Counted from the first letter of the stretch, positions 10,901-58,024 are shown. The stretch is DNA of 64,000 nucleotides from Paraspadella gotoi (GCA_051294375.1 CM119264.1:15711473-15775472), one strand, 5' to 3'. Numbers and translations are program-made. Notes: generated by a model from the letters alone, not told the origin.

Positions 10901-13900
10901 ACAAATGTTTAAAATAAAAATAATATAAAATTATAATAAAAAATAAATAAAACAGATATTATTAACTTTATTTTTATATAAAAAATATATGATGTTTAAT
11001 TAAAACTTAATCTCAAATAAAATAACAGGTAATATTAGTTGAGTGCTTTAATTCAATCTCATATCCAGCTTTTAATAGTAATAATATTTGTTATTATTTA
11101 TAAAAAAAAATTTACAAAAAATAAATAATAAAGTAGCTCACTCAATATTTGATATATATTGTTAATAAAAAATGTTCCAAAATATTAACAAGTATAATTC
11201 ATTAACTTTTAATACTTGAATAAAATATTATATTAATAGTTTTAAAAAATATTTTATTTTTTTAAATATTTTATAATAAAATTATTATTAATTAAAAATA
11301 AATTTATTTTATAGCCTAACAAGTAGAACTGCATTATTTATATATAGAACATATTTGTATCTTAATTTTTAAGAAATAATCCATCTGAAATAACTAATTA
11401 AATAATCTTTTTTTCTATTTAAATTTTTACTTATAATTCAATAAAGAAAAATTGTAAAAAGTTAGGAGAGGTTTCAAATTAAAGCTTATGCTTTGTAGAT
11501 AATGTTAGACATATAAAGTTTATAAACATTCAAATTGTAAGCATATTAACTATCACTACTAAAATATTTTTATAAAAAACTTTAATTAGTATTTACCAAA
11601 AATCCTGCTCTGTTAGGATTTTGCTGCCCTACTACATTAAGTGCTAAAAAATGAAAAGAGTATTGATAATGAAAAACCAATACTACAAACATAAAAGCTA
11701 TGAATATAAAATACATGATGCAATAATCCTTTCTTTTTCATTGTTTTTAATATTAAAGAAAACAAAGTATTTTTGAAATTGCAACCTCACTTCAATAAAT
11801 TTTTAACAGTTTTAATTTGAATATGAACTTAGAACGGTTTTAGTAGTTTATTCTTTTATTTACTAGCTTCATTAATTACTAGAATTGCGTTTATTTAATT
11901 GTGGATCTATTAAATCAGTCCGTTTTTAACTTTTTTCCTTCCTTTTTTTTATTTTATATTTGTGGGATAAGGCGCTAAGTAGGGCAGAAGATGACTATCC
12001 GTATTCTTCTATAACCCCCTCTAACAGACATGGAACGGGTCCTGGGCTTGGAACCAGGCTTGAGGGTTTGCCACGCCCCCAAGGCGGCTTACGGCCGTCC
12101 TCACTCTTCCGCAGGGTAGGTACCGGTTGGGATTGAACCGGGTACCTAGTGGTCATGAGCCTGATGGCTTACTCAATGAACCACCGGTCACAACTGAAAG
12201 AGTCATGCTTACAATTTGAATGTCTATAAACTTTATATGTCTAACATTATCTACAAAGCATAGCTTTAATTTGAAACCTCTCCTAACTTTTTATGATTTT
12301 TCTTTATTGAATTATAAGTAAAAATTTAAATAGAAAAAAAGATATTCAATTAGTAATTTCAAATGATTATTTCTTAAAATTAGGATACAAATAGTTCTAT
12401 ATATAATACAAATGCAGTTCTACTTGTTAGGCTATAAAATAAATTTTATTTTTAATTAATAATAATTTTATTAATAAAATATTGTAGACATTGTGTATAA
12501 ACTATCAATTTCGTTGCGTTTTGGAAAATTTAGGAGAAAAAAAAACAATTTATTTGTTTTTATCAACGAATTGTTTTATTGTTATAATTTTAAAAATTTT
12601 AAATTATTTTAAAAAATTTTTAAAAATATTTTAAAAAATTTTTAAAATATTTTAAAATATTAATACAATTTTATTCAAGTATTAAAAGTTAATGCATTAT
12701 ACTTGTTAATATTTTGGAACATTTTTTATTAACAATATATATCAAATATTGAGTGAGCTACTGTATTATTTATTATTTTGTAAATTTTTTTTCAATAAAT
12801 AATAACAAAAATATTACTATTAAAAGCTGGATATGAGATTGAATTAAGCCTCAACTACTATATACCTGTTATTTTATTTGAGATTAAGTTTTAATTAAAC
12901 ATCATATATTTTTTATAATAAAATAAAGTTAATAATCTGTTTTATTTATTTTTTATTAATAATTTTATATTATTTTTTATTTTAAACATTTGTTTAAAGC
13001 CTTATAGTAGAATGTATTTTTGTATCTTTATTTTAAAAAAAAATTAATTTTTACTAATAATTCAAAATGAAAAATCGTAAAAAGTTGGGAGAGGTCTCAA
13101 ATTAAGCTTATGTTTTGTAGACAATGATAGATGTATAAACATTCAAATTGTAAGACACAGACAAAAATAATAAATAAATATTTTTTCAAAATTTTTCAAG
13201 ATTTAACAATTCATAGCTCCTGAACAAAATTAAAAAACTAATACCTATTTACGCCAATAGAAAGCCCAAGGTTTACTCTAGAGGATTTAGTCTGTTTTAT
13301 ACCTTATTTTACATTATTTTCAAAGTTATAAAGGGAAAAATAAAAAATGTGACTTTAAAATGCCGAGATTCGGTTCCTTTAAAAACATCAATAATTGGAA
13401 AAGTATTTTTGGATTTTTAAAAATAAAGTATGTAAAATGAAGTATTTTTTCCGCCTTTTAAATGACGCAGGTTAAATTTGATTCTGACTGATATTTTTTA
13501 GATATCTATCAATTTTAATGAAAAAAAACCGTTTTTTTGCAAATTTTGAAGAGTTGCAAGCACTTATTGATCGATTTTTCAAAAAACAAGATAGAAAAAT
13601 AATTAGTAGCATATAGGGGACAATTGTTACTATAGTGGCTAAATTCTGTAAAAAACTTTATAAAATTTGCTAAGGCCTATTAACCATAGTTCATTTGCGA
13701 AGTAATTGCGAGAAAAACAGTCACAATAAAGTAAAAAAAAAAAAAAAATTTGGTTAAAACACAAAAAACTCGCTCTTTCTCGAAATGAAGATGGAACTCT
13801 TTCAACTTCAGTTTACCGGAAATGTTCCAATACTGGTCTCACTTTAAATCCTACCTCTTGCCAAAATCCTGGTTTATGGAAAGGGGTATTTAAGGGTGCT

Positions 13901-16900
13901 CTCTGCAGAGCTTATCGAATTTGCTCCTCTCGATCTCTCCTTGAAAACGAAATTTTGTATTTGCTTGACAACTGGGAAGACAATGGTTATCCAAGAGAAC
14001 AATTACAACAGATCTCACTTGAATACAAACCACCAGAGCTGCGCCAAAGCAATCCTGTCATTTCTGCCCAGTCCTCAACAAACTCACAAACCACAACCAA
14101 CTCACAAACACTTAGCAAAGAAATACATGAAATAACATCCACAACCCAACTAACATCCTCTCAACCACCACAACCCCAACAACGACAACCTAAAAAAACG
14201 CTAGCTTTTGCTTCTCTAACATACATACCATCTATTGGTAACAAACTTAGACATGCATTTAAAAAACATGATTGTCGCATTTTTTTTAAGTCAGGTTCCA
14301 AACTATCCAATTTGTTGTGTGGGCCCAACAAAACACAACCACCTTTGGTTGATAGAAAAGGGGTTTATAAGCTTTCTTGTAATTGCCAAACCCCACCCAA
14401 CAACAACGCCTCTTCTTACGTTGGAAAAACAAGCGTCTCAATAAAGAAGCGCACAGCACAACATCGAAGAGATTCCGCATCTTCACACGACAGCCAGAAT
14501 GTCGGAAATCAGCAAACATGCAAAATCTTGCGAAGGTGAAATCGCTTGGGAAGACCCTGTGGTCCTTGCAACTTTTTCAAACAAAAACCGAAAAAAACTT
14601 GAATTTGATTTGCATGTTCGTGAGAGCCTGGAGATTCGTCGTCAAGGGACAGAACCGGGATAAGGCCTGAACGATGATCTCTCTAAATATGTAAAAACAC
14701 ACGCATGGAATTCTGTTCTACAAAAACTAGAAGACTATTGAAGATGGGGGGGTTTCTTTCTCTTTCTTTCTCTTGAGCTTTTGTCCTTAACTTTGACATG
14801 TTTCTTTTCACTCTTTCTCTCTCCCTCTTTTAACCAAAATATTTTTGTTTACTTTATTGTGACTGTTTTTCTCGCATTTACTTCGCAAATGAACTATGGT
14901 TAAGCAATGTTAACCGAAATATATTGCTCAAATAAAAATAATATGCGTTTTCCTCATAAAACGATGTTAATCACCAATACTATTTTTCGCTTCTTATGAA
15001 CGACATAGAAAATGACATTTGTAAGGGTAAAAAATCTTTATCACAAATTTTATTTCGAAACCTCCCCTAACCCTAACTACCCCTCATCCCTAACCCTAAC
15101 CACCCCTAACAATTCGTTTTTGCACTGATGAGGGCTTATATTAGCGGTAGCCGACCAAATTCTAATTTTAATGAACAGCATTTAAACTAATCTATTATTG
15201 TATTAATTATTGTGTTAAAATATTTTTTTGCAAAAATGTTCCAACCATGAGTAATTCGCTAATTTAATATTATAATTGCTATATAATGTCAAAAGTTTTT
15301 TTTTGATATTTTAAGTTTTTTTAATTGATTCTTGATAGAGCTTAAAAAGTTAAGCAAAAAATAATTACACTTTTTAAAATTTTGATGTTTTATTACTAAA
15401 ATTAGTAAAAACTGCTAAAATCATCGGATGATGATGATGATTGATGATTTTTAAGGTTTTTCTCAATTTAACACCCACCTATCATCAAAATATTGGAAAA
15501 GAATATACTTGTGTAGATAACTTTTCATAAGCTATTTGAATCTGCTTTTAAAAATAAAAAATTCCCAAAAAAATTTTTGACTTTCCTATCTATATAAATA
15601 TTAAAAATTAATTACTAATGCTCTTGCCATTTTAAAAAATTTTGCTCCATGAAAGTTTTCTCAGAAATGTATGAAGTTTCATTTGGAAAGAGTTCCCAAA
15701 TCAAACTTCTGCACCCACCCCATTGACGAAGTTTGGCTCTACTTATATTGAAATCCGAAATTTATGTTTCTTATTTTACATTGTACATCAACAATTCATT
15801 TTCTAAAAATATCAATTAAAATAAATTTATTATTGTGTAATCCTTTTGTTTCGTTGCTTGAGGAATTTGCAGGAATAAGTTTGATTTGTTTGTGACAACG
15901 ATTTGTTTTATTTCAGTTTAGAAACGGACAGGTTTCGGCTTTGAATACAAGCCTTCATCAGCGTTGACAGATTTGTTGATCTGTCAACAGTACTCTCAGA
16001 ACAACTCGATAAGAAAGTCAACACATTGAAATTGCTGTTTTTTCGGCTTTGATGTAAGCCTTCATCAGCGCAAAAATGAATTGACTTATAAAACAAATAT
16101 TTTCACAAACTTTTTCTCTGTCTCACTTCAAAGTGTGTTTCACAAATCAATAAGTTTTTACATTGAAGCCGAAACATGTCCAAACATGTCCTCAAACAAA
16201 TAACACAACGAAATAAAAGGAATAACTATTTTTGTTATATTTTTAAAACGGTTAGCAATTGAGTTAAGGGTGGTTAAAGATTACTGGTGGTTAGGGTTAT
16301 GGGTGGTTAGGGTTAAGGATTAGGGGTAGTTAAGGGAGGTTTCAAAATGAGATTTATAAAAAGTTTTTCTACCGTTACAGTATCCTTTTTTTTTTACTTT
16401 TACTTTTCGCTCATTACTTTGCGAAAAACAAATAACTACCCACAAAATCCCGGTCGGCGAATGTACAATTTAGCCCAAAAAAATTTGTATTTTGTTTACA
16501 AACAACGATTTTTAATAGAAACAAGAACCGCCGGCTACGCCAGCAGGCGAGACGAGGGCCTTCGGCAGGCTTATCAGGGTCAATTTCCGCCTGAATCTCT
16601 TCCAGACCCAACCCTGTCGCACTCCGTCACAATGTCCTCTCAGCCAATGATACGCCAATGACCCGATCACTTCGTCGACATCCCTCTTGATGACCAGGGG
16701 GGGCAGCTCATTTTGAGCTCTTTCTTTTACTTACTTTACACTACTATCTTTCACTCATCTCTCCTTTCCATTTCTAATTTCACTTATTCAAATTTATTTA
16801 CATTATTATTATTAATAATAATATCCACTAAATTTACTTTTTAGTTTACCTATTTATTCAAATCGTTTTCACTAAATATTCCGACACAACGAATGAGAGG

Positions 16901-57794: not shown

Positions 57795-58024
57795 TGAAGA
57801 GACAGTAATTATTGATGTGTTAGTGACAGAAACGTTCAATATAAGCAGTCCCTGAGCTTCGGATCAGGCTGTAACACCATGTTACAGGCGGGTTAAGCGC
57901 CCCGTCCCTCTTAACTGCCAGACGACCACCGGGCTAGAACCCCGGACCTTTGGGTTGGGAGGCAAATGACTTGCCTCCGGCACCAATGGCCGCTGATGAA
58001 CGGTTGGTGGATTTTAGTCCACCA
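57795..58024 (-). mobile_element. tRNA-headed SINE-like element with twister (second copy 18625-18856)
   Basis: tRNA-like GCGGCCA..TGGTCGT with box B GGTTCTAGCCC; two near-identical copies; this one interrupts a HINE with a TAAATG duplication. Confidence 0.75.
57845..57918 (-). ncRNA. Type-P5 twister ribozyme, loopless self-complementary P1 (GGCGCU)
   Basis: GCAGUU AA GAGG GACGG GGCGCU U^AA CCC GC [CUGUAACA UGG UGUUACAG] CCUGA UCCGAAGC UCAGG GACUGC; T1 CG/CG is compensatory. Confidence 0.85.

Follow-up and report, generated by a model that had tools for sequence, protein, structure and literature searches.

Twister ribozyme folds of type P5 whose helix P1 is a loopless palindrome of 6-8 nucleotides (nt) were analysed in a 64,000-nt stretch of Paraspadella gotoi DNA (GCA_051294375.1 CM119264.1:15711473-15775472), an AT-rich eukaryotic sequence referred to below as the window. 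Nine type-P5 folds belonging to four families were found in the window, and a fifth family was detected on a metagenome contig (locus L227, contig Ga0163179_10318613). Conservation of the self-complementarity of P1 is well supported, resting on the sequences of these five families. Dimer-assisted cleavage, with P1 formed between two ribozyme copies, is the best explanation and is held with slightly better than even confidence.

Twister folds in the window

The window was searched with a structural descriptor in the order P2', GA, T1, P1 segment (at most 30 nt), UAA, P2, T2, P4, UNNNAAGY, P4'. Exactly the nine loci named in the original prediction, which had been made from the sequence of the window, were recovered, with the predicted scissile U at 12091(-), 17282(-), 18727(-), 19831(+), 49283(-), 49606(-), 52183(-), 52507(-) and 57895(-). 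In 200 local Markov resamples the descriptor returned a mean of 0.2 loci and a maximum of 2, and the chance background was 0.06 loci with a P1 segment of up to 8 nt. Relaxing the descriptor revealed no additional twister family in the 64-kilobase (kb) window. The twister folds are real, and they are very probably working ribozymes. The folds and the elements around them are as follows, with positions counted from the first letter of the window.

12037..12112 (-): family 1 type-P5 twister fold; P1 CGGCCG at 12092-12097; predicted cut 12091/12090 (from descriptor and energies)
12118..12190 (-): family 1 tRNA-like head; B-box-like GGTTCAATCCC at 12129-12139 (read from the sequence)
17244..17308 (-): family 2 twister fold, solo; P1 AGGCCU at 17283-17288; predicted cut 17282/17281; element about 17190-17400
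18625..18858 (-): family 3 element, copy a; tRNA-like head 18753-18825; twister 18679-18751; P1 GGCGCU at 18728-18733
19751..19940 (+): family 4 element; partial tRNA-like head with B-box; twister 19805-19886; predicted cut 19831/19832
49189..49777 (-): family 2 tandem pair; cuts 49606 and 49283; cut-to-cut unit 323 nt
52089..52679 (-): family 2 tandem pair; cuts 52507 and 52183; cut-to-cut unit 324 nt; both cores intact
57795..58026 (-): family 3 element, copy b; head 57921-57993; intact twister 57845-57919; P1 GGCGCU at 57896-57901; predicted cut 57895/57894
6002..6132 (-): decayed family 2 copy; AGGCCU kept; P2'/T1 damaged
38120..38207 (-): truncated, decayed family 2 copy; AGGCCU kept; P4 5' strand deleted

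The predicted layout was recovered in all four families, including the order of elements, L1, L4, T1, T2, P2, P4 and P5. The features described for type-P5 twisters in PMC5408937 comprise P2, P4, the conserved L1 and L4, T1, T2 and the active-site G and A. T1 consists of three base pairs (bp) in families 1-4 (GGA/UCC, UGG/CCA, CGG/CCG and UGG/CCA, respectively). Overall, the T1 words GGA/UCC, UGG/CCA, CGG/CCG and AGG/CCU occur with both partners changing together, as is also the case for T2 (GC/GC or AC/GU). The sequences of P2, P4 and P5 vary by family with pairing kept in each. The covariation previously claimed for these five elements was borne out in a between-family comparison. A bulged A in P2' is common to three families, as predicted, and P2 comprises 3 bp there. 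The P5 flank duplexes have energies of -9.6 to -15.8 kcal/mol in the five families (L227 included), and in family 1 the contiguous part of P5 is short. The active-site GA and U^AA are present in every family; GA is kept in eight of the nine loci, the exception being 49606, where the general-base G is lost (AA for GA). In copy a of family 3 (18727), P4 is shortened or damaged.

An intramolecular P1 hairpin with a loop was found in none of the families; at most 1-2 bp are possible, and these are energetically unfavourable. Because an intramolecular P1 with a loop is absent, and because P1 is conserved but reported to be dispensable, the window motifs are a variant of the type-P5 twister and not canonical members. 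An Rfam search at E<=1 matched family 2 only (five copies at 25.5-25.8 bits, aligned with zero loop positions in P1); families 1, 3 and 4 gave no match at this threshold. The gathering threshold of RF02684 (37.6 bits) was reached by no family, L227 scoring 27.3 bits (Twister-P5, E=0.0025). The expectation that standard models may miss such folds was therefore correct. Since three of the four families are missed, twisters of this type are probably under-counted in eukaryote genomes. Outside the ribozyme, none of the six family pairs aligned better than shuffles in the 3' parts, and two of the six did so in the 5' parts, over the tRNA-like heads only. Apart from the fold, the families are thus unrelated.

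Families 1, 3 and 4 have a common layout of head, twister and a tail of 50-100 nt. A B-box-like word lies 46-48 nt before the predicted cut within the tRNA-like head, no run of four T is present, and the family 1 element has an A-rich end near 11940 (-). By these sequence features the three families appear to be tRNA-headed elements of the type of short interspersed elements (SINEs), that is, SINE-like. ARAGORN called no tRNA in the window at default settings; a low threshold gave 26 calls, largely noise, among which the tRNA-like heads of family 3 alone were matched. The two family 3 copies also share about 30 nt upstream of the head, including a small hairpin, at 18826-18858 and 57994-58026 (-). 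Such a segment before the head is not typical of a plain SINE; it would fit a permuted or circular intermediate.

Family 2 has no tRNA-like head and occurs solo at 17.2 kb and in head-to-tail units elsewhere. By analogy, it is comparable to a terminal repeat of Penelope elements or to a unit of an animal retrozyme. The original prediction had missed this context as well as the tRNA-like heads of the other three families. The four family 2 copies that it placed at 49-52 kb are present, but they form two tandem pairs inside one 2.9-kb duplication (47270-50174 and 50175-53076, 99.1% identity) and therefore count as one locus. The tandem duplication 47270-53076 may be either a recent event or an assembly artefact.

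Self-complementarity of P1

The segments from T1 to the scissile U read CGGCCG, AGGCCU and GGCGCU in families 1-3, loopless as predicted, and UUUCGGCA in the window copy of family 4 (19823-19830). Family-wide data cover family 4 only and were obtained from public contigs placed on the window copy, with depth summed. At position 19824, G accounted for 137,712 of 140,768 depth in run X4 (98%) and for 1,321 of 1,544 in run X6. The family majority P1 is accordingly UGUCGGCA, and the window copy is mutated. This majority sequence is self-complementary over eight letters with two G.U pairs, and it replaces the earlier reading of the fourth P1 as a changed UGCCGGCA. The majority base is moderate evidence for the palindrome, since the majority sequence also fits a 2-bp stem within a monomer.

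Family 4 is clearly abundant. Its summed depth, which does not equal copy number, was about 335,000 in the core versus 98 in unique flank, and the flanks varied. Near the predicted cut site, depth stepped from about 140,000 before to 330,000 after the cut. The window copy differs from the majority at six upstream places, and depth falls downstream as well where the window copy diverges; the step could also mean that copies start at the cut. No contig of runs X10 and X11, which are from other organisms, was placed on family 4, and this is not proof of its absence there.

The metagenome scan employed the twister core with a 6-nt P1, the only demand on P1 being G or C as the two middle letters. 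At least 119 loci were obtained, with 44 of 64 parts covered. Of 119 matches, only L227 passed T1, P2 and P4 together, and its P1 is CAGCUG, a perfect palindrome. The background of self-complementarity among the matches was 5/119 for perfect 6-mers and 14/119 (about 12%) with G.U pairs, and the false descriptor passes were roughly estimated at 0.6 per 120 matches. L227 has a P4 of 5 bp and a P5 of -15 kcal/mol. The twister is located about 300 nt behind an open reading frame (ORF) with a YMDD motif, which ends without a C-terminal nuclease and whose N-terminus lies off the contig. The ORF gave no Pfam match and no homologue among longer proteins; PF26215 was found in 39% of the members of its look-alike clusters, and a decayed reverse transcriptase (RT) piece in the window was matched weakly (E=2e-5). 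From its sequence, we read the ORF as a probable Penelope-type RT end.

With G.U pairs allowed, P1 is self-complementary in five of five families (CGGCCG, AGGCCU, GGCGCU, UGUCGGCA and CAGCUG), and the five palindromes have four different central tetramers. The predicted conservation of self-complementarity thus extends to family 4, which had been the exception, in the family-wide data, and to L227. The chance that three of four central tetramers are Watson-Crick palindromes was calculated post hoc as about 0.001-0.006, depending on GC content. Self-complementarity depends on G.U pairs in two families, which points to RNA pairing and not to DNA. A palindrome acting at the DNA level (nuclease or factor site) was ruled out because of this dependence.

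In the phage contrast, 30 of 45 matches were P5 twisters, all with P1 hairpins of 15-30 nt; two others belonged to a tandem type-P1 family, and 13 failed. Five further phage scans, with 32, 130 (21/64 parts), 87, 108 (106 re-scanned) and 17 matches, yielded no credible P5 twister with a short P1. The scan with 32 matches gave two descriptor passes, both from the tandem type-P1 family, and the scan with 130 matches gave none. Among 112 matches in prokaryote genomes there were two descriptor passes (L384 and L417), neither self-complementary. Both were treated as chance matches, having no Rfam match and lying near the expected number of false passes.

The scans also provided examples of clustered twisters. 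On phage contigs, type-P1 twisters were found back to back with a spacing of about 50 nt (L018 and L028, also L004); these repeats can alternatively be read as a permuted core across copies. The metagenome contig L256 carries three canonical type-P5 twisters inside 1.3 kb (1-39, 739-795 and 1173-1234).

Pairing between copies and rival explanations

Pseudoknots and co-transcriptional kinetics were left out of the energy calculations. On this basis, P1 closure within a monomer is unfavourable by +0.8 to +3.9 kcal/mol, and a P1 shared between two copies contributes -8.4 to -11.4 kcal/mol. A strand-swapped dimer was calculated to be 11.7-16.3 kcal/mol better than two monomers in five of five families; of this margin, 3-7 kcal/mol arises without P1, partly from the missing pseudoknots. 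With the mutant window copy of family 4, the swapped dimer was better by only 0.7 kcal/mol. In unconstrained folding of family 2 tandem RNA, the palindromes paired with each other at a probability of 0.89-0.99 in four of four folding windows. P5 was placed across copies, within-copy P5 having a probability of at most 0.03. These calculations, together with analogy, favour the predicted pairing of P1 between copies.

In a single copy, P1 would be limited to 1-2 bp under a 4-nt loop and would remain unformed. Two copies joined as a dimer would exchange halves: the P5 strand, P2', general-base GA and T1 strand of copy A (its 5' half) would pair with the scissile U^A, P2, T2 and P4/L4 of copy B (its 3' half) and reciprocally, with a shared P1 of 6-8 bp. 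The swapped form would combine the active-site guanine of one copy with the scissile bond of the other, and efficient cutting would be expected mainly in tandem or concentrated RNA. Tandem read-through transcripts would be cut into units, and single-copy RNA, either a tRNA-headed SINE transcript or a unit circle, would stay intact for reverse transcription. Intact single-copy RNA would be needed by a SINE-like element because the cut lies just behind the promoter. The motif was likely derived from terminal repeats of Naiad/Chlamys-type Penelope-like elements, and the double twister would be the twister counterpart of the dimeric minimal hammerheads in Penelope-like elements. An obligate double twister, off as a monomer and on in tandem, in Naiad/Chlamys-type elements and in the SINEs and retrozymes mobilised by them is proposed tentatively, at distinctly less than even confidence; in that case the palindrome word would act as a family-specific pairing code.

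Several points weigh against dimer-assisted cleavage. Twisters without P1 cleave at a nearly wild-type rate (PMC5408937), and P1 imperfections caused no loss of cleavage in a large assay limited to type-P1 twisters (PMC11662667). As P1 is reported to be dispensable in both sources, monomers may be cleaved as well, a caveat raised already in the original prediction and backed by PMC5408937. The sample consists of five families, three of which were known before the hypothesis, and the family 4 majority is also consistent with a monomer stem of 2 bp under a UCGG loop. Tandem copies occur within the window for family 2 only, families 1, 3 and 4 being present as single copies. Family 4 looks dispersed, and no head-to-tail joint was present among the six joints listed from contig placement. 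When the palindrome of the family 2 tandem RNA was permuted to non-complementary orders, the probability of the main cross-copy P5 decreased from 0.53-0.78 to 0.27-0.42. Cross-copy P5 thus persists in broken-palindrome controls, and part of the swap comes from tandem symmetry. Intact copies of head plus ribozyme could also stem from re-ligated circles and are no proof of slow monomers. No sequence common to the twister families and an autonomous element was detected in the window, and the putative link to Naiads rests on the sequence of L227. For one Penelope-like element, hammerhead cleavage was dispensable for insertion in vitro (PMC11167929).

Ordinary monomeric twisters lacking P1, with the palindrome as a 6-8 nt linker left over from a hairpin that lost its loop, were considered an unlikely explanation. 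Deletion of the loop from a P1 hairpin leaves a palindrome automatically, and P1 was dispensable in the tested twisters of PMC5408937 and PMC11662667. The gap could be spanned by a stem of 1-2 bp and a tetraloop, and the majority base of family 4 completes such a 2-bp stem. Decay would be expected of a leftover that is not paired, yet five families are fully self-complementary, with four different centres. Rapid cutting of monomers, about 25-30 nt behind the tRNA head, would detach the promoter, whereas four of four tRNA-headed window copies span the cut. In addition, none of the best-supported 6 of 212 loose ends for run X4 lies at the cut site of family 4.

Alternatively, the palindrome might pair RNAs as a kissing or dimer contact joining templates for a Penelope-type RT, resulting in template jumps and tandem inserts, with cleavage being weak, protein-assisted or secondary. 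Six-letter palindromes serve as dimer signals in retroviruses, and conserved self-complementarity of the RNA type would be explained equally well. A Penelope hammerhead cleaved only when protein was present, insertion used mainly the uncut RNA, and a dimer was predicted for the protein (PMC11167929). Against this, the palindrome occupies the very place at which P1 has to stack on T1. All catalytic positions and the two pseudoknots are retained by five families, and a mere kissing loop would need neither. This alternative was judged quite improbable.

The chance is very small that the folds are inactive passengers, recently captured with the 3' ends of autonomous partners, functional only in these and now decaying: the damaged window copies (49606, 18727, 19824, 6002-6132 and 38120-38207) and the high similarity of family 4 copies across the core, as a young family would look conserved without selection, are in line with it, but this would only shift the question, since selection of fold and palindrome must then have taken place in the partners, and the cut-to-cut units of family 2 (323-324 nt) lie inside the 170-400 nt range of animal retrozyme units (PMC7229834).

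Other features and comparison with known systems

Additional repeats and gene fragments were detected in the window.

15925-15961(-), 20518-20555(-), 21252-21289(+), 22104-22139(+), 27416-27452(-), 29214-29248(-): minimal type-I hammerheads of the Penelope terminal-repeat kind

None of the six minimal hammerheads was reported by Rfam. Stem III is ACAUGU in five of them, and those at 20.5 and 21.3 kb form an inverted pair. A 5'-truncated Penelope-like element at 13730-14740(+) comprises an RT end together with a GIY-YIG at the C-terminus (E=0.0013) in a broken reading frame, with a short inverted copy of its own tail at the 5' end. A decayed C-terminus of a Penelope-type RT is located at 26660-27091(+) and is followed about 330 nt later by a minimal hammerhead on the opposite strand; no relatives of this fragment were found in viral contigs. 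Exons of IMP dehydrogenase are present at 8391-9932, 26300-26500 and 30063-30395 (+) among many repeats, and several twister elements lie in the introns of this gene on either strand. The best solved relatives of the exons are IMPDH1 and IMPDH2 entries, which we take to be human.

In the open full-text literature, a scope that leaves supplements and subscription papers outside, no description was found of natural twisters that have a palindromic P1 or are dimeric, or of Penelope-like elements or tRNA-headed SINEs that carry a twister. This agrees with the novelty claimed earlier for twisters. In the main texts, the string 'palindrom' is absent from PMC11662667, PMC8501958 and PMC10085705, and 'twister' is absent from PMC8557442, PMC11167929 and the 2026 retrozyme preprint 10.64898/2026.07.22.740005. 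The only dimer mentioned in the twister review PMC5408937 is a crystal artefact.

The window families resemble the type-P5 twister (RF02684, clan CL00120) in element order, L1 (UAA/GA), L4 (UNNNAAGY), T1, T2, P2, P4 and the P5 ends, and the active-site G and A are likewise present. They differ from it in P1, which is a loopless palindrome of 6-8 nt here and a hairpin of 15-30 nt in 30 of 30 phage examples, in the 3-bp P2 with a bulged A (three families), and in scores that either fall short of the gathering cut-off or are absent.

Minimal type-I hammerheads of Penelope-like elements cleave as dimers (PMC6765202). Together with the amphibian retrozyme hammerheads, they have a palindromic closing helix and a location in short or tandem retroelement repeats in common with the twisters described here (PMC6765202, PMC7229834). 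In contrast, the twister is an unrelated class with two pseudoknots, and its reduced helix is known to be dispensable; dimer cleavage is experimental in hammerheads and predicted in twisters. A dimer switch is thus known for hammerhead ribozymes and was not found in print for twisters. If dimer-assisted cleavage is true, these folds would represent a natural dimer-gated twister, and two unrelated ribozymes would have arrived convergently at one switch within one kind of retroelement.

SINE-like elements of schistosomes (PMC6765202) are also short and non-coding, and in them, too, a self-cleaving ribozyme follows a polymerase III-type head. The ribozyme is a hammerhead there and a twister here, and the copies here start with the head and are dispersed. 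Dimer-assisted cleavage, if true, would explain how a SINE-like RNA carries a ribozyme just behind its promoter without severing the latter. The twisters of the long interspersed element Perere-3 of Schistosoma mansoni (PMC8501958) are likewise retrotransposon twisters with a weak or variable P1. They are situated at the 5' end of the element and have open ends in P1, one strand of which comes from the insertion site, whereas the folds described here are internal, of type P5, and have a fixed palindrome in short elements or behind an RT gene.

Naiads and most Chlamys elements are described as being without canonical hammerheads (PMC8557442). Elements of the Naiad/Chlamys type have a Penelope-type RT whose GIY-YIG nuclease is N-terminal. 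The L227 twister is located behind a putative Penelope-type RT end with no C-terminal nuclease, where other clades carry a hammerhead. Dimer-assisted cleavage, if true, would offer a possible answer to what replaces the hammerhead in Naiad/Chlamys elements, and an obligate double twister, if true, would explain the missing hammerheads in the most prolific Penelope clade.

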